Position numbers and translations under genes: made by a program. Shown piece after piece: positions 9,111 through 21,839 of a DNA stretch of 64,000 nt. The stretch comes from Naegleria gruberi (lineage: Eukaryota): the NCBI GenBank assembly GCA_000004985.1, contig GG738902.1. The stretch is one strand, 5' to 3'. Every line of letters starts with the position of its first letter. Position 1 is the stretch's first letter. Below the pieces are notes generated by a model. That model made no database searches, was not told the DNA's origin, and saw nothing but the letters and a program-made list of their open reading frames with translations.

Positions 9111-9729
9111 AATTAAATCTTGTACAGAGTTGATGTTTTACCAGGAATTGATTTGTTATAAAATTTGAGTCATATGAATTGGATATGAGGTTTTGCTTGT
9201 TTCTGATAATCAAACTGATACTAAACATAATACTGCAGAAGGAATTTTGAAGCAAAAACATGAAATAAAAAAGACTACAGCACCACAGGTTCCCAAGTTG
9301 TCTCCAACCTCAGTACTGATGTGGCTCGACGATGCTTAACTTCTCAAATCGGACGGGATGAGGTGCATTCATCGTGATATGGCCGTAGCCATCAATAGTC
9401 TTAAATTCTGAAATATAAATCTACCACCAAGAGGAACATGGCTGGAGAACAGGTGTCCTTTTACTGACTTAGAAAGAAACCAGACAACTTTCAGAAGAAC
9501 ACGTCAAGATCGAAATCAAAGAGAACACAGAGAGTTTAACAAACTCAAGAATTGAATAAAGCTAAAAAGGAAAGTGAATAACTGTTCTGTTGTTAATTAG
9601 AGAGAAGCGAAATGTGAAAATTTTCAATATTTTAAAATCTACAAGTTCACAAATCCCCATTCACAAAGCATGGCTGTAACACAAAGATAAATTACAACAT
9701 GGACCTGTAACAAGTTCACTTTCAACAAA

Positions 9730-13115: not shown

Positions 13116-13799
13116 ATGAGTGAATTATTCCGTAGTTATGAAGATGAATATTTCGAAGCCTCCAACGGAATTAAACGTTCTTTGGCCGAGTTGAAGAGTG
13201 TATCTGGAGATGCCAAGAAGAGAGTTGTTCGTAAAATCGAAAAGGATCTCGACACTGCAAACAAACAAATTAAACAAATGAACCTTGAAATGACAAGTAC
13301 TGCCAATCCTCAAGAAAAGGAAAATTTAAAGAAAAAGTTAAAGACATATGGACAAGATTTAACCAATCTTAAAAAGGAATTTGAAGGAGCCAAATCAGAT
13401 AACAATAGAAATAGAGATGCTCTATTCTCTGGAGGCTATGATGATGATCTTCCATCAGCAAGTGATGATTACAGAAATAGACTAGTTCAATCTACTCAAG
13501 TATTGGAAAGATCAAATGAAACTTTGGATCGTGCCAGTAAAATTCTCGATGAGACTGAACAAATGGGTGTTGAAACAGCAGGTACATTGAGAGAACAAGG
13601 AGAACGTATGAAAAAGACTCGTGACAAACTCTATGATGTTGATTCTCAAATCAAACAAGGTGGTAGAATTCTTGGAAGAATGTCAAGACGAGAAGTTTTG
13701 ATCAAGGTCATTATCATTGCTGTCATTCTCTTCTTATTGCTCATTATTGGTATCATTTTATTCTTTATTTTCTATGGTATCTTTAAGCCATCCAAATAA
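13116..13799 (+). CDS. VTI1: Qb-SNARE VTI1 (vesicle transport v-SNARE).
   Basis: N-terminal Vti1 helical domain, a SNARE motif (...LDRASKILDETEQMGVETAGTLREQGERMKKTRDKLYDVD...) and a C-terminal transmembrane anchor IIIAVILFLLLIIGIILFFIF. Single exon. Confidence 0.8.
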   Translation: MSELFRSYEDEYFEASNGIKRSLAELKSVSGDAKKRVVRKIEKDLDTANKQIKQMNLEMTSTANPQEKENLKKKLKTYGQDLTNLKKEFEGAKSDNNRNRDALFSGGYDDDLPSASDDYRNRLVQSTQVLERSNETLDRASKILDETEQMGVETAGTLREQGERMKKTRDKLYDVDSQIKQGGRILGRMSRREVLIKVIIIAVILFLLLIIGIILFFIFYGIFKPSK

Positions 13800-14025: not shown

Positions 14026-14970
14026 TTGAGTGAAAATAGAGGAAAAAAGAGGGATCTCTTGACTGACACCTATATTTCCCTTCAAAAACATTATGAGGAT
14101 TTTCGGAATAGATATCAACTCTGTGTTTGTCCCACATGTAATGAATTAATTTATCAATCAAAGTATCAGGATTTGGATCAGAATTGTATTTTGAGTTTGT
14201 GTAGAGTTTTCAAATTTTTAAAGGAGGATGATTTACAAGAATTGTCTTCAAATTCTTCTGCAAATAATACGAATGGTGGAATTGGAGGTAGTGATAACAA
14301 TGTAGGAAGCAGTGCATCACATGCCTCTTCTTCTACTGATGAAACAAATACCACTAATAATGAATCATCATTTATGGACCTATTTGAAATATCAAACAAG
14401 GACATTTTGAAAGGATATGAAATGGAAAAATCAAATGGTAAAAAGCAACATGGAAAAAAGTCAAAGGAAGAAAAGAAGGGAGAAGAGCATGATCCTGATA
14501 TTCATGTTCCACTCTATATGGATGTTGGAACCAATGCAGGAGAATCTCAAAAAAAACAAAAGTGGGAATTAGTATTTGGTGTTGGGCCTGCTAGATTGGA
14601 GTTGGATTCATCAAGGTCTGGAAGAATTTACAAACCATCATTGAGATCACTAAACTTACCTCACATCTCAACCAGTCTGTACAAACTTCCAGAAAATGTC
14701 ATTACTTCTGATATTCAATCTCAATGTGAAAAAATTGTTGAACTTGTTCAAGGATTGGATGAACAGGCCTTGACAGATTTAATACTCAATGTACTTGTTA
14801 AAAAGATTCCACTCTATGAGCATTTTGATGAAATTTCAGAGCTCATCACTGAACAACTATCCTCCATCAGACACATTAGAGAAATTGAAAAACAAGAAGA
14901 AATGGAACTTGCAAGACATTACAAGGGTAAAACTCTAACAGACATTCTCTCTAAAAAATCAAAACAGTAA
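14026..14970 (+). CDS. Hypothetical low-complexity protein. The 5' boundary is uncertain.
   Basis: A 314-codon open frame whose listed start is TTG; the first in-frame ATG is near 14380. It is Ser/Asn/Gly-rich in the middle and probably helical at the C-terminus. No recognisable domain. Confidence 0.3.
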   Translation: MSENRGKKRDLLTDTYISLQKHYEDFRNRYQLCVCPTCNELIYQSKYQDLDQNCILSLCRVFKFLKEDDLQELSSNSSANNTNGGIGGSDNNVGSSASHASSSTDETNTTNNESSFMDLFEISNKDILKGYEMEKSNGKKQHGKKSKEEKKGEEHDPDIHVPLYMDVGTNAGESQKKQKWELVFGVGPARLELDSSRSGRIYKPSLRSLNLPHISTSLYKLPENVITSDIQSQCEKIVELVQGLDEQALTDLILNVLVKKIPLYEHFDEISELITEQLSSIRHIREIEKQEEMELARHYKGKTLTDILSKKSKQ

Positions 14971-15163: not shown

Positions 15164-18100
15164 ATGCAAAGTCAGAACATGTTTGAGTCTTCTTCGGCTC
15201 CACCTTTGGAGACCAATTATAATAATAATGATGATAACAATAATCAAAATCCACTCTCTATTAGTATGCAGCTATCGGAAATGGCTAATCACATAGTAAA
15301 TCCAAAATATAATATGATACATGCAAGTGTGGAGACTGATCATGCGAGAGAATATAAATTATTGGTCGAAAAGAGAAAATCAATGGCTGGTGCAATTGAT
15401 GTTGGAGGTGCTAAAGGAAATAATGGACAAAACGGAAGACCAGGTAAGAATGGAAGACCTGGAAGAGCTGGAACAACTCGAAGTGAAAGTAAAATTGGAG
15501 ATCGAGGTGAAAATGGAGAACATGGTACAAATGGTGAAGATGGTTATCATGCAGAGAATGGTAGAGATGGTGATGTATTGAATATTCTATTGGATCGATC
15601 ATCTCATCCACAAGAGTTATTTGTTAAATATTCGAGAGAACAATTGAGAGCAAATTATATTCAAAGCCAGAGATATGGATATAATGCAAATATTATTGAT
15701 GAACACAGATTTAATTCCAGTTCAAGATTTCCTCTCAATTCTCCAAATGAGTTTGTCTTGTTTAAATCAAATGGAGGTGACGGTGGAGATGGAGGTAATG
15801 GTGGTATGTAGTAACTTTCATTTGAAATTTGGAATTAACAACTTCATCAATAGGTCACGGAGGAAATGGTGGTAGTGGTGGAAATGGATCTAATGGTACT
15901 GAACAAGGAGGAGATGGTGGTGATGGAGGTAATGGTGGAGATGGTGGCAGGTAAGTTTTGAATTTAAAATATATTTACAATTTGTAAAGAGCAAGTTATG
16001 GAGGTCATGGAGGTAGTGCAGGTTTAATTTTCATTAATGTAAGTGATAGGATGAATAGAGTTGTTGTAAATTTATTATTATAGACCTATGATCCAAGATT
16101 ACTTGTGTTGACAAGATCAGAAACTCATGGAGGAAGAGGAGGTAAAATTGTAAGTGTATAAATTCTTTAACCTATTTACTTTAACTTTACAATAGGGTAT
16201 TTGTGGAGAGTTTGGTGTTGGTGGTAAAGGAGGATCAGCTGGAAAGTAAGTTTTGTATTTTTGAATTTAATTTGTAATTGAATTTGTAAAGGGGTTTACT
16301 CAAGATGGGAAGACATGGCAGACAGGGCTCAAATGGTACAAAACAACAAACCAACATTGCACACGAGTCACAAAATGGAAGCGATGGTGTAACTGTTTAT
16401 AGAGTTCTTGATTTCCGTACTAATCAGATAATGTTTGAAGGACAAAAGTCTTTTACAGCAAGAATTCTTTCATTTGATGTTGAGGCTAATGATGACGATG
16501 GAGTTTTTGAACCTGGCGAAGATATTACATTGAAAAATTTCAAAATCCACAACGATGGAGATATTCCTCTTCCTGCTGGATCAATTCTTCGTATTGCTTA
16601 CGATCCAAATGGATTTATTTTCAGCGAAGATCAATATATTCTTCCTGAGATTGGTCCAAAACAAACACTCAACTTGACAAATACTGCCTTAACCGCTAAA
16701 ATTTTACCAAATGCTTTGAAAACCTCAGAGCTTTCTAAAAACATTTCTCTCAATGTTCAAGTTGACTTGTTTGATAGAATTTTTGAGGAATCAATTATGG
16801 GATGTACCATTCTTGTTCAATATCCAATCAATATTACAAATATTGATTATTTAAAGCAAATGGGAAGAGGAGATTCTTCAGATATCATTATTTCATTCAC
16901 AAATTTGAGTAAGAGACCATATCAATTTGTGTATAATGTCATTACACATGATCAACTTTTCCTTGTAGAGACTGAACAAAGGACAATTTCATTAATGTCA
17001 CAAATCAAACCAGAAAACATCAACATGCATCCACATTCTGTAATATTAGGCTATTGTTCTGAATTTTATCAAAAACAACAAATGGAAATAGAATTGATAT
17101 ATAAGGACACAGTTATTCAAAAAGTCAGCAAATCCATACAAGCAGTCCCTCACTTCAATCCAACTGTAATAGACAGCACAGATGTGTTACTAATTACAAA
17201 TAATACCTTTAGAAGAGAAGATTTCAAGGCATTTTCTGAAATATTCCAACTTTTAAATATCAGAGCTAATTTTTGGGATCTTGATTTTTACAAAGGGATT
17301 TCATATCAAGAAGATACACGAGCTAGACATACCATTTCATGTGTCGATAAGTATAGAGGAAAGCTGATTATTTTATGTGCTAAAAACATGGATGATGTAC
17401 AAAAGTTTATGCCTATGGATCTTATTTATCATTTTGGCCAATATGAAGCTGATCAAGTATTGGCTGCTGACTTTAAGTACAATAGTGGTCTTTTGGTATT
17501 GACACCTGAATTACCAAAGCAGGAGGAAATGAAGAAAATTCTTGGGGACTCTCATGTTGCTGCTCATGTCACTGAATTTGATTCTGACAAGCAATTTTGT
17601 GGATATTACAAATTACTCTATCCTACCCAAAAGGATGTTGAAGAAAAATGCAAAGAATTGGAGATGGAAAAGGAAAAGAATTCCCTTGAGAGATATGTTG
17701 TAAATGTTGACACTTTAGAAATCAAGCAAGTTAAGAGTGATTCTTGGGTTTCATGGAAGTATTCATACGGAAAGGCCTCAATGTTCAAGTTGAATGTAAA
17801 TATTTTCCAAACACTTGTTGGACTCGCATTCAATAGCGAAACAAACTTTGATGATTTTGGAATATTTTCAGATCAATCAACAGGCGAAATTATTGATAAC
17901 CCAACCGTAATTGAACTATTGAAGAATAGGAGGAATACTTTACATTTTAACTTACTCTATTCTATTGCTTATAGTTTGGGATTGGAATCCAAATTACAAG
18001 TTTTACAAGAATTGGATGGTAAAACTGAAACTTCCAGACTCATCAGAGACCTGATTAGATGGACATTATTTGAATCCGTGAAGAGAGAGACTAGACTTGG

Positions 18101-18467
18101 TAGTGGAGTATCTCCAACATTGGAAAGATTAGTTCATACACTTGTACATAAGCCACACTTAATTTGTGAAACTACACTCACCACAGTCATTCATATTTTC
18201 GAAAGAGCTAGTAGTTTCACGTATTATGGTAGTTTTGTTCCATCCTCTTTGAGCTTTGGTTACAAATTCAAAGAAAAGAGAAATGAAATTATCAAATTGA
18301 GTGAAACAGCTGATGTAGAGTTGAGAAGGGCTGGCCTAGAGGCAATCAACAATCAAACTATTCAATATTTCGATATAGATAACACCATTTTAAAGGCAAA
18401 GTCAGAGATCTCTACAACAGAGTTCCCTAAATTGAGGGACGTAGCTTTGACTTATCTTATTGAGTAA
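15164..18467 (+). CDS. Large mosaic protein encoded by 6 exons. It comprises an N-terminal region, collagen-like Gly-X-Y runs, GG[DN]GG glycine-rich micro-exons and a 720-aa uncharacterised C-terminal domain.
   Basis: Exons are 15164-15803, 15854-15950, 15990-16038, 16084-16149, 16196-16245 and 16292-18467. All introns are 40-50 nt, with GTATGT or GTAAGT donors and AG acceptors, and phases close without stops. Exon 1 contains GAKGNNGQNGRPGKNGRPGRAG and GDRGENGEHGTNGEDG triplets. The micro-exons encode HGGNGGSGGNG...GGDGGDGGNGGDGG. The last exon begins MGRHGRQGSNGTK and continues through a large domain with no recognised motifs. Confidence 0.6.
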
Positions 18468-18478
18468 TAAACAAATAT

Positions 18479-19738
18479 TTATTCGTTTTGAATTTCCAAA
18501 TCATGAAGCCATTCTTCATATATTGAAGGATTATCCAACAAGTCAAAGTTATTAGGGTGAATGTATTCTAGTAAAACTCTTCCAGTAGTAAGGTTTAACA
18601 AATACAATCTTGGTATGGTTCTATCAGGGTTTAAAGCTTTTGTTAGTGCCAAGTTAGCTTTTGCACTATCAAAGGGCAATGCATAGAAACCCATATCCAT
18701 TTGTTTCATGTGAAAGAAAACTCTTCCTTCGTTCAATTCATTCGAAACTATTACAAACTCGATAGCTTCCAGACCGTAATCTGCCTTAATTCCATAGTAG
18801 AAATCCACAACTTTGTGGATGTATTCTTTTTGTTTCTGTAACTTCCAACCAACAGTCCATGATGGTGCAAATAAAATTCCCACAATCTTTTTATCTGTCA
18901 ATGTCTCTAACACCTTTGACACTTTCTTCTCTCTAGATACCAAATCAGTTTTTGGAAATAATAAATTAATATTAAGCTCAACATCATCCATAAAAGTTCC
19001 ATCAATTATTCTGTATTTTTTGGTGTCTCCTAGTTTTTCTCTCCATTCATTAAATAATTTCATAACTGGCTCAATATTTCCATCAGACTTGTTGTCAATA
19101 TTAAGGGCTTCCATCTCTCGTAATTCAGAAAGGCTTGGGCCTTTCATTATTTCAAACTTGTTATCCTCGAATTTCCAAGGGTTAAACAACAACAGTTCTG
19201 GCTCTTGACTTCTTGTTGAATATGATATTCCAAGTTTCGGAGCTACAGATCTTAGTAGTCTGATATTATTCGATGCATTATAAAATTGATACCAAGGTAA
19301 TTGGAAATTTGTAATAGGCAGTCTATTTCTTGATCCTAAATCAGGAGGAAACTGCACCATATCAATAGATCGGCTTCCATATTGTTGATGTATTATTTTG
19401 AAGAGTTTTTCAACCTTTTCATGAAATTCCATATGATGTTCGATATCCAAGTTTAGCCTTTACATATATTTTGTATAAAGCATAAACATTAATCATTCAA
19501 CCTACCTCAAAACACCAATTAACCTCGACTTGTTGCACACATCTTCAATAGGTTTGATTATTCTCTTGACCTCCTTCTTTTCTACTGTAACAAACTTTAT
19601 CATCATTCCGGAAAAAACACTCCTCAAATACTCTTGATTCTTCCCCAACATGACCTTCTTTTGAGTCCTACTTCTAGCCATCTCTTCATAATCAATCACA
19701 GGCTCATAAGGTTTTTCATTCTTGAATAAGTCTCTCAT
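18479..19738 (-). CDS. Nucleoredoxin/tryparedoxin-like thioredoxin-fold protein lacking the CxxC active site. It has 2 exons, 19506-19738 and 18479-19457.
   Basis: The core reads ...KIVGILFAPSWTVGWKLQ...EFVIVSNELNEGRVFFHMKQMDMGFYALPFDSAKANLALTKALNPDRTIPRLYLLNLTTGRV, matching the nucleoredoxin pattern (SAxWCPPC...MPWLALPF...IPTLV). The site is APSWTVGW in place of WCPPC. Intron 19458-19505 runs from GTAGGT to AAAG, phase 2. Confidence 0.6.
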
Positions 19739-20162: not shown

Positions 20163-21839
20163 ATGATTAAAAATGTCCAGCCTCATTCTAGAGAGTTCAT
20201 GTCCTCTCCTCCGAGAAGGTACTCGTCATTGTATGCCAATAATGGGACAGTTACATCGGTATCATCATCACTGTCCTCAATAAGACCAGACTCACCAAGA
20301 TATAGCACTAATAACATCACAACAACAACAAGTGTTGAATTAATTACTCCTGTAAAAGCCTTCATACCCAAAATTATTCTTAAAAAGAAGGTTCCTGAGA
20401 CTTTTTGTCCTCCAAAGAGAAAAGGGCACTCAATGACTTTTTGGAATAATAGATTATATTTATTCGGAGGTTATCAAGGAGGACATTCAAACGATCTATG
20501 GTTTTTGGAAGGAAATAAGTGGAAAAAATTGGATGTTCAGGGTGTGTTACCTGTAAAACGTTCAAATCATTCTTCGGCAATGTATAGAAATCATCTTATT
20601 GTTTTTGGAGGTGATAAGGGAACGGATTTAATGAATGATATGTGGATTATAGATCTTTCAAAACCAGAGTCGGATATGAGATGGAGAAAAGTAATCCCAA
20701 AGAACCAGCCACCAAAAGTTAGATATGCTCATTGCTCATGCATTTTGAATGAAAAATTAATGTTATTTGGAGGATATTCAACTTCCTATCTGAATGATCT
20801 ATATGAATTTGATTTTAAAACTTTATTATGGTCCCCAATAAGTGTTAACGATGCTCCTCCAGAGAGGTGTCACTTTACAATGACAGCCATACCCGAGTGT
20901 AGCTCATTATTAGTGTATGGTGGTTCAAATGGAGAAAATAATTTGAATGATGTTTGGGTTTTCAATCGATCATTTTGCACATGGTCTTTGTTGCAAATGA
21001 ATACTGATGTTGGTTGGCAAAAGGGCATTAAACCATGCCCAAGATCCAAACATGCTTGTACTAAAATATCTAGGGATACACTTTTAATACATGGAGGTAA
21101 TGTGAGTCCTTCTAAGGATAATAATATTTGGATGCTAAAGCTCACAGGGTTTTACGAAGACAAGAGGTCACTAGGAGTAGAATGGAAAAAGTTAGAATTC
21201 TTAGCTGCGGATGGTTTTTGCATTCGAGAAGCTCACTCTATGAATACAGTTGAGACTGATATTGTGATATTTGGAGGTTTTGCACCACATGTGGAAGGTC
21301 ATTATAGAAACGATACTTGGTGGGGAGACATTTCCTCACTGTTGGAAAATTCATTTGAGGAACCTGAGGAAACAGACGAGGAAGAAGCTGAACCAAAGCT
21401 GGTTGACAATGAAATTGAACAAGAAATTCTCAATAGAATCAATGAAGCTATGGGAAGAGAAAAGCCAATCAACAAAGGTTCTGAGTTTGATTCGGCAGAC
21501 ATTTTTGAAAAGATGGAACTTTACACACCAAGAAAAGTGGAAGGCCTTAAGAGATCAACAACTCCAGATAGAAACGCAAGCCCAGATAAGAAAATCTTAG
21601 AAACACCAAAGAGAACTAACTCGCCAAAACGAGGAAGTACCACACCACAAGAAACAACAACTCCAAAGAATTCAGATTCCACATCTCAAAAAGTAAATAT
21701 TTTAGAAAAATTGGTGGTTGAATTAAGTGAAACAGTTCAACAATTAACAATTTCTCTTTCAACGGAAACAAAGAGAAGGATATCAATGGAACGTGAAATT
21801 GAAATGATAAAGTTCTTACTGGAGCAAGAAAAAAAATAA
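20163..21839 (+). CDS. Kelch-repeat beta-propeller protein with a Ser/Thr/Pro-rich and coiled-coil C-terminus.
   Basis: Five or six kelch-like blades, for example RKGHSMTFWNNRLYLFGGYQG, KRSNHSSAMYRNHLIVFGGDKG and VRYAHCSCILNEKLMLFGGY. A C-terminal heptad region reads ...LEKLVVELSETVQQL... Single exon. Confidence 0.7.
   Translation: MIKNVQPHSREFMSSPPRRYSSLYANNGTVTSVSSSLSSIRPDSPRYSTNNITTTTSVELITPVKAFIPKIILKKKVPETFCPPKRKGHSMTFWNNRLYLFGGYQGGHSNDLWFLEGNKWKKLDVQGVLPVKRSNHSSAMYRNHLIVFGGDKGTDLMNDMWIIDLSKPESDMRWRKVIPKNQPPKVRYAHCSCILNEKLMLFGGYSTSYLNDLYEFDFKTLLWSPISVNDAPPERCHFTMTAIPECSSLLVYGGSNGENNLNDVWVFNRSFCTWSLLQMNTDVGWQKGIKPCPRSKHACTKISRDTLLIHGGNVSPSKDNNIWMLKLTGFYEDKRSLGVEWKKLEFLAADGFCIREAHSMNTVETDIVIFGGFAPHVEGHYRNDTWWGDISSLLENSFEEPEETDEEEAEPKLVDNEIEQEILNRINEAMGREKPINKGSEFDSADIFEKMELYTPRKVEGLKRSTTPDRNASPDKKILETPKRTNSPKRGSTTPQETTTPKNSDSTSQKVNILEKLVVELSETVQQLTISLSTETKRRISMEREIEMIKFLLEQEKK

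Follow-up and report, generated by a model that had tools for sequence, protein, structure and literature searches.

Animal and bacterial collagens consist of long proline-rich repeats, and bacteria, phages and giant viruses, too, commonly have proteins in which collagen-like repeats are linked to globular domains. Natural polyproline-II bundles are known from the snow-flea antifreeze protein, the Obg N-terminal domain, the glycine-rich domain of ALK/LTK, the gp38 tip of phage S16 and acetophenone carboxylase, and in these known bundles helices with two glycine faces lie inside and helices with one glycine face at the edge (bioRxiv 10.1101/2023.11.25.568672; PMC13243192). Here we describe a glycine-rich gene at 15164–18467 (plus strand) of a 64,000-nucleotide stretch of Naegleria gruberi contig GG738902.1 (the window), in which short Gly-X-Y and GGX runs precede a large last exon. 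The reading we favour, with somewhat better than even confidence, is that one spliced gene encodes a soluble intracellular protein of 1025 amino acids (aa), a member of the DUF7932 family with a single-chain polyproline-II bundle, which possibly serves as a membrane scaffold.

A DUF7932 family member with a large glycine-rich domain

By its sequence the gene is a member of the catalogued, functionally unstudied DUF7932 family. Pfam DUF7932 (PF25560) matches aa 357–478 with an E value of 1.3e-15 and 58.4 bits (cutoff 27), over profile positions 2–130 of 130. A search with the spliced protein found 195 homologs; all 120 of those listed carry PF25560, and most are 900–1350 aa long. Eukaryotic members among those listed come from Willaertia (such as W. 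magna ABK040_007802), Naegleria (N. lovaniensis C9374_009181), Vannella, Tetrahymena (TTHERM_000947372), bdelloid rotifers, sponges, the nemertean Lineus, the fluke Opisthorchis and the fungi Orbilia and Hypoxylon, and further members come from Kofleriaceae (Myxococcota) and Bacteroidota. Terrestrivirus protein A0A3G4ZNF8 (1137 aa, BFVD model) is a full-length relative as well (Foldseek E value 2.3e-37 over 1147 columns), and because a giant virus thus encodes a full-length DUF7932 protein, there is a hint of gene exchange among amoebae, their viruses and bacteria. No mention of DUF7932 or of the locus tags of the family was found in the literature searched. The first-pass annotation, made from the sequence alone, had called the protein undescribed, which holds for its function, none being described for the family, but not for the family itself, which is already in Pfam.

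Members share a conserved order of parts, with a variable tail followed by a glycine-rich domain of ~250 aa, two immunoglobulin (Ig)-like beta-sandwiches, an alpha/beta domain and a helical domain. The window protein is colinear with the family over its full length, as seen in a BLASTP alignment with a Willaertia magna protein, in an alignment of 87 sequences, in AlphaFold2 models and in a profile search with the C-terminal part. The Willaertia protein (P0002), a hypothetical protein of 998 aa and the best named homolog (43% identity, 99% coverage), is probably the ortholog of the window protein; its alignment spans aa 10–1025 and continues across every exon junction without a gap. When a profile built from the last 443 aa was compared with 1.8 billion representative proteins, 889 clusters matched at E values of 1e-3 or below, and in most of the longer listed matches this C-terminal module starts at least 550 residues in, which fits the fixed architecture. 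Several relatives carry added domains: three FYVE fingers (P0332, P0344), SAM and PH (P0026), GST (P0030) or C2 (P0082). The two FYVE-bearing predictions both start inside the glycine domain and are therefore probably 5'-truncated.

The glycine-rich domain has six glycine-rich segments of ~20–27 residues each, with GGX runs at aa 204–225, 232–246, 250–255, 278–283 and 293–298. Glycine makes up 38% of aa 201–330, and in 2000 shuffles of the protein no run of at least seven G-x-x triplets arose. No other positions of the protein are as well conserved as the glycines, which in the family alignment are invariant or conserved to at least 90% in sequences ranging from bacteria to sponges. Segment lengths and interleaved strands are fixed across the family too, as in the consensus GGxCxIxxxDPxLLMLVExD. 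In the model of the Willaertia ortholog, residues 60–316, which cover both Gly-X-Y runs, both GGX runs and the glycine segments that follow, have a predicted local distance difference test score (pLDDT) of 88–95 in most blocks and almost no helix or strand assigned by DSSP. For the last Gly-X-Y run the pLDDT is 50–58 when this run is modelled at the beginning of the exon-6 product and hence lacks its partner segments. Residues 1–59 of the Willaertia model have a pLDDT below 50, so the N-terminal tail is presumably disordered.

The modelled region is confident and compact, is of neither alpha nor beta type and consists of GGX and GXX triplets; on these grounds the Gly-X-Y and GGX segments of a single chain most likely form a compact bundle of left-handed polyproline-II (polyglycine-II) helices. 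The packing of known bundles, with its inside and edge helices, fits the arrangement of GGX runs flanked by Gly-X-Y runs in the window protein. In the fold that we envisage, the GGX helices would lie inside the bundle, their two glycine faces packing tightly, with the Gly-X-Y helices at the edge, and a few short strands (DVLNILL, EFVLF, LIFIN-TYDPRLLVL) would brace the whole. The third positions left exposed are mostly Asp, Asn, Lys, Arg and His and would give the bundle a rigid polar surface.

More tentatively, the ~250-aa region could represent an unrecognised domain class, a very large intracellular polyproline-II bundle that would be common to ~900 sequence clusters of eukaryotes, bacteria and a giant virus; the published lists of such natural bundles that we examined do not include the DUF7932 glycine domain. 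If so, the domain might be distantly derived from the Obg fold, and it might be the rigid charged platform of a membrane-recruited sensor or scaffold. Comparison of the glycine domain with E. coli ObgE and with a 98-sequence Obg profile by hhalign gave weak probabilities of 9.6% and 12%, the alignment setting the family's GGxGGnvvI..D..LlmLve against ObgE with a suggestive common motif, GGxGGdV.I..D..L..L., and a search of the PDB with the glycine-domain profile met 1lnz weakly, at an E value of 1.6. Pfam GTP1_OBG (PF01018) matched none of 18 family members. Because hhalign probabilities of 10–12% are suggestive at most, we do not claim homology to the Obg fold. An RTX calcium-binding beta-roll was considered and rejected, as there is no Pfam HemolysinCabind match, the repeat period is 3 and not 9, and the modelled runs contain no strands.

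Gene structure and apparent intron turnover

The first-pass annotation had proposed a six-exon gene joining the glycine-rich exons to a large last exon, and on sequence comparison such a gene at 15164–18467 is confirmed by its closed frame, by colinearity with P0002, by an ortholog on a related contig (L002) and by bacterial homologs in which the glycine-rich part and the rest are encoded by one uninterrupted open reading frame (ORF). Three-frame translation and assembly give 1025 open codons from the ATG at 15164 to the TAA at 18465–18467, with exons of 640, 97, 49, 66, 50 and 2176 nucleotides (nt) and splice phases of 1, 2, 0, 0 and 2 that close exactly. The five introns, of 39–50 nt, begin with GTAAGT or GTATGT and end with AG, and their G+C content is 15–26% compared with ~33% for the window. 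The ATG at 15164 is the first, and a second one in frame lies at codon 6; the sequence SSAPPLE near the N-terminus of the Willaertia ortholog supports a start at 15164. The minus strand of the interval has no ORF longer than 71 aa. We take the gene model as settled short of RNA evidence, and its parts, all on the plus strand, are as follows.

15164–15803, plus strand: exon 1, 640 nt, phase 1 at its end
aa 1–75, in exon 1: polar N-terminal tail
15407–15472, in exon 1: Gly-X-Y run 1 (aa 82–103)
15497–15544, in exon 1: Gly-X-Y run 2 (aa 112–127)
15563–15763, in exon 1: strand-rich insert
from 15773, in exon 1: beginning of the first GGX run
15804–15853, plus strand: intron 1, 50 nt, GTATGT..AG, phase 1; same position and phase in L002 (GNG|GHGG)
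15854–15950, plus strand: exon 2, 97 nt, encoding HGGNGGSGGNGSNGTEQGGDGGDGGNGGDGG; glycine columns at least 90% conserved in 87 family members
15951–15989, plus strand: intron 2, 39 nt, GTAAGT..AG, phase 2; L002 lacks an intron here
15990–16038, plus strand: exon 3, 49 nt, encoding (R)ASYGGHGGSAGLIFIN, with the last part of the second GGX run and a conserved strand
16039–16083, plus strand: intron 3, 45 nt, GTAAGT..AG, phase 0; at the position of L002 intron 7, after IFIN
16084–16149, plus strand: exon 4, 66 nt, encoding TYDPRLLVLTRSETHGGRGGKI, the conserved DPxLLMLVE hairpin
16150–16195, plus strand: intron 4, 46 nt, GTAAGT..AG, phase 0; at the position of L002 intron 8, before G[IV]xGE
16196–16245, plus strand: exon 5, 50 nt, encoding GICGEFGVGGKGGSAG(K); the L002 counterpart continues without an intron into the last exon
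16246–16291, plus strand: intron 5, 46 nt, GTAAGT..AG, phase 2; absent in L002
16292–18467, plus strand: exon 6, 2176 nt including the stop codon
16308–16337, in exon 6: last Gly-X-Y run (aa 307–318)
16398–16772, in exon 6: beta-sandwich 1, with the DUF7932 match at 16458–16823
16797–17144, in exon 6: beta-sandwich 2
17160–17828, in exon 6: alpha/beta domain
17901–18407, in exon 6: helical domain

The annotated micro-exons of 97, 49, 66 and 50 nt and the peptide runs quoted for them are all present, with phases that close exactly. Introns of 40–50 nt had been described, as is true for four of them, but intron 2 has 39 nt; and all three of the reported perfect Gly-X-Y runs are seen, but the third stands in exon 6, after the micro-exons and not before them. 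For intron 2 another in-frame acceptor would give an intron of 45 nt (15951–15995) and two residues fewer; the 39-nt version is favoured because the continuous RPSY of L002 matches the RASY that it yields.

The closest homolog (P0001, 56% identity) is a prokaryote-style ORF call on L002, a sequencing-run contig of 53 kb with synteny to the window. When the gene on this contig is rebuilt, nine exons close into a frame of 1059 aa. Three intron positions are shared between the two genes, two are found in the window gene only and five in L002 only; at the shared positions the introns measure 50, 45 and 46 nt in the window and 65, 74 and 65 nt in L002, respectively. Exon 4 has 66 nt in both, and its DNA is 80% identical. 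The glycine array, in which intron positions differ between the window and L002, looks like a hot spot of intron gain and loss. Two micro-exons of 9 nt are present at L002:9294–9478, one at 9344–9352 (GGAATGGAG) and the other at 9405–9413 (GAAATGGAG), each encoding G-N-G within the GGX array and having phase-1 introns at G|GT on either side.

A Vti1-like V-SNARE gene (13116–13799; Pfam V-SNARE found on the L002 counterpart) lies upstream of the glycine-rich gene in both contigs, with a 314-codon ORF (14026–14970) between the two in the window, and since L002 has the same gene order and orientation, local synteny is conserved. On the minus strand a 323-codon ORF (18479–19450) ends 11 nt past the stop codon of the glycine-rich gene, tail to tail, and from ORFs so close together the genome appears to be compact. 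Further on, at 20163–21839, is an uninterrupted ORF of 558 codons, which in sequence resembles a Kelch-repeat protein whose C-terminal part would be Ser/Thr/Pro-rich and coiled.

The last exon, a proposed role and its alternatives

The exon-6 product was modelled by AlphaFold2 with the alignment of 87 sequences (mean pLDDT 89.2, predicted template modelling score 0.83). In model residues of this product, beta-sandwiches are predicted at 36–160 (including DUF7932) and 169–284, a Rossmann-like alpha/beta domain with parallel strands and a long hairpin at 290–512, and a helical domain at 537–705. What had been annotated as a single 720-aa domain is therefore predicted to be four domains, and the last exon, reported to be free of motifs, contains the Pfam DUF7932 match. 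In fold searches the top 50–60 matches listed almost only Ig-like domains, and the Ig-like sandwiches of CARDB, macroglobulin MG and transglutaminase C-terminal barrel domains have 3–15% identity to those of the window protein; this likeness is a generic fold resemblance and carries no functional information. Searched with two profiles, the last 443 aa had no significant match among Pfam, PADLOC or PDB sequences, nor any match in NCBIfam, and among the matches listed no known family or solved structure corresponded to the alpha/beta and helical domains.

Among 182 members the best-conserved C-terminal residues are L600, G794, E900 (94%), W629-D630 (92–94%), D598 (83%), K868 (80%) and H681 (73%). 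The conserved polar residues fall within 17184–18092 (aa 598–900), where they are scattered over the alpha/beta and helical domains. Judging by the alignment, D598, D630, H681, K868 and E900 could form a ligand site or an interdomain contact, and the conserved residues present no recognisable catalytic signature. The first strand-helix-strand unit of the alpha/beta domain (DVLLITNNTFRREDFKAFSEIFQLLNIRANFWD) has, by eye, a likeness to TIR domains, which was set aside as there is no TIR family among the Pfam matches (no dedicated test was made) and no conserved glutamate was seen at the expected TIR catalytic position. A caspase-like reading was dropped, no conserved Cys having been seen in the conserved columns.

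Speculatively, the protein may not be an enzyme but a scaffold or binding platform on membranes, at their cytosolic side; the C-terminal alpha/beta-helical module would bind a partner, with the beta-sandwiches serving as spacers. The FYVE, PH, C2 and SAM domains of animal and protist relatives would on this proposal be targeting additions, and it is because some relatives carry these domains that we place the scaffold at membranes. Several points weigh against this reading as a whole. The membrane idea draws on fusions in distant relatives, and the window protein itself has none; the five conserved polar residues could form an active site; and weaker fold matches to the alpha/beta-helical part could sit below the listed Ig-like ones. 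The polyproline-II geometry is deduced from pLDDT, DSSP and the repeat pattern rather than from backbone angles, the full-length model (mean pLDDT 86.2) is that of the Willaertia ortholog, 43% identical to the window protein, and the gene model is built on sequence comparison and not on transcripts. Across the four bacterial loci compared there is no conserved neighbour gene, so that genomic context gives no functional help. At one of these loci, in Kofleriaceae (L001:4006–9103), the DUF7932 gene directly follows a Ser/Thr protein kinase gene on the same strand, and two genes with lipoprotein-like N-termini lie downstream; these neighbours recur in none of the three other bacterial loci.

The structural alternatives concern how the glycine-rich pieces fold and whether they belong to the gene. 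A collagen-like trimeric triple helix of the Gly-X-Y runs, with a globular head, in a secreted structural or adhesion protein of the C1q or Scl style, is close to what the first-pass annotation had envisaged, and we regard it as very improbable. Pfam Collagen does match aa 82–137 (E value 1.4e-6) as well as 13 of 18 family members, and NCBIfam gives weak matches to SclA, SclB and Lcl; however, the Pfam score is marginal (28.4 bits against a cutoff of 27.2), the Scl and Lcl scores of 20.6–31.2 bits compare with cutoffs of 325–500, the runs comprise 3–7 triplets with proline at 2 of 24 X/Y positions, and the single-chain Willaertia model packs the Gly-X-Y runs confidently against the GGX runs, all of which speaks against a triple helix. 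Matches to collagens in the PDB are compositional (best domain score 9.4, bias 18.4), and those of the glycine-domain profile to collagens and a fibril protein were rejected as due to composition alone. Nor is a surface or adhesion protein borne out, as no signal peptide or anchor motif was seen in a hydropathy check (no dedicated predictor was used), there is no membrane segment (highest 19-residue Kyte-Doolittle mean 1.15, with a polar N-terminus), and relatives are fused to cytosolic domains (FYVE, PH, SAM, C2, GST). The window protein is thus probably not a collagen. Disordered low-complexity regions usually drift in length and register, and the conservation of glycine positions, segment lengths and interleaved strands from Myxococcota to sponges therefore argues against a disordered low-complexity linker, perhaps one that drives condensates, for which the AlphaFold2 confidence would be a repeat artefact; so does the change in pLDDT from 88–95 in most blocks to ~50 once the partner segments are missing. 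We consider such a linker decidedly unlikely, although the glycine content of aa 201–330 and the lack of regular structure according to DSSP would suit it, and glycine-rich segments are frequently disordered (discussed in PMC13243192). It is hardly credible that the glycine-rich pieces are non-coding or form a separate gene, with the 720-codon ORF at 16305–18467 translated alone. The ATG at 16305 does open an ORF of 720 aa, a prokaryote-style gene caller produced such a product of 719 aa on the related contig (P0001), and the spliced model comes from sequence comparison; yet the glycine-rich domain stands directly upstream in all family members, including the bacterial ones with a single ORF, the P0002 alignment is gap-free at the junctions, the ortholog keeps the coding pieces but has introns of other lengths at the three shared positions, and the first 30 residues of the ORF, which belong to the end of the glycine domain, are poorly modelled alone.

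Other functions can be imagined for the same architecture. An enzyme in which the Rossmann-like and helical domains are catalytic or nucleotide-binding, with the N-terminal parts for substrate recognition, would make sense of the parallel-stranded alpha/beta fold and of the conserved polar residues (D598, W629-D630, H681, K868 and E900 in the 182 members), but the C-terminal module is unmatched in Pfam, NCBIfam, PADLOC and PDB sequence families, and no P-loop, dinucleotide-binding motif or catalytic Cys motif was seen in the conserved columns; we think this unlikely. A component of biological conflict or innate immunity, with a glycine platform for sensing or binding some molecule of a pathogen and with spread by horizontal transfer, seems quite unlikely to us. 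Its appeal lies in the patchy distribution over distant eukaryotes, Myxococcota, Bacteroidota and a giant virus, in the several paralogs per species in rotifers, sponges, Lineus, Naegleria and Tetrahymena, and in one bacterial copy ~5 kb from an EAD11-Roc gene, whereas no PADLOC defence model matched, the four bacterial loci lack conserved neighbours, and there is no recognisable effector domain.

Significance and comparison with known systems

From Myxococcota to sponges a protein of ~1000 aa has been conserved, with fusions to FYVE, PH or C2 domains in relatives, and it stands without an assigned role; Tetrahymena has family members and may be a practical test organism. Two cautions for annotation follow from the gene. 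Short perfect Gly-X-Y runs together with a marginal Pfam Collagen match invite a 'collagen-like' label, and one sponge member carries the name 'collagen alpha-1(XXVII) chain-like'; and a glycine array with micro-exons down to 9 nt belongs to a type of gene that gene callers split. What may be new here is the structural aspect, in that the DUF7932 family may contain a large and widespread unrecognised polyproline-II bundle domain. Folded glycine-rich polyproline-II bundles are known from few proteins, and a larger, widespread family would, if true, aid the study and design of this fold.

Like collagens and the bacterial proteins Scl1/Scl2 and Lcl, the window protein has perfect Gly-X-Y periodicity over short stretches, but unlike them it is poor in proline, lacks a secretion signal and a wall anchor, and has a predicted single-chain fold. 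With the known polyproline-II bundles it shares tandem GGX/GXX triplets, a conserved glycine register and a compact domain that is predicted with confidence and has neither alpha nor beta structure, and, as in the Obg and ALK bundles, short strands appear to form the base of the glycine domain. It differs from them in that the domain is much larger, is predicted to be intracellular and is set within a multidomain protein of ~1000 aa. The strand-rich insert of the window protein (aa ~134–200) is longer than in most DUF7932 members, a feature in common with Willaertia and L002, and unlike some animal and protist members the window protein is without PH, SAM, C2 or FYVE additions. Its full-length architecture and order of parts are otherwise those of the DUF7932 family, from which it differs in nothing essential.

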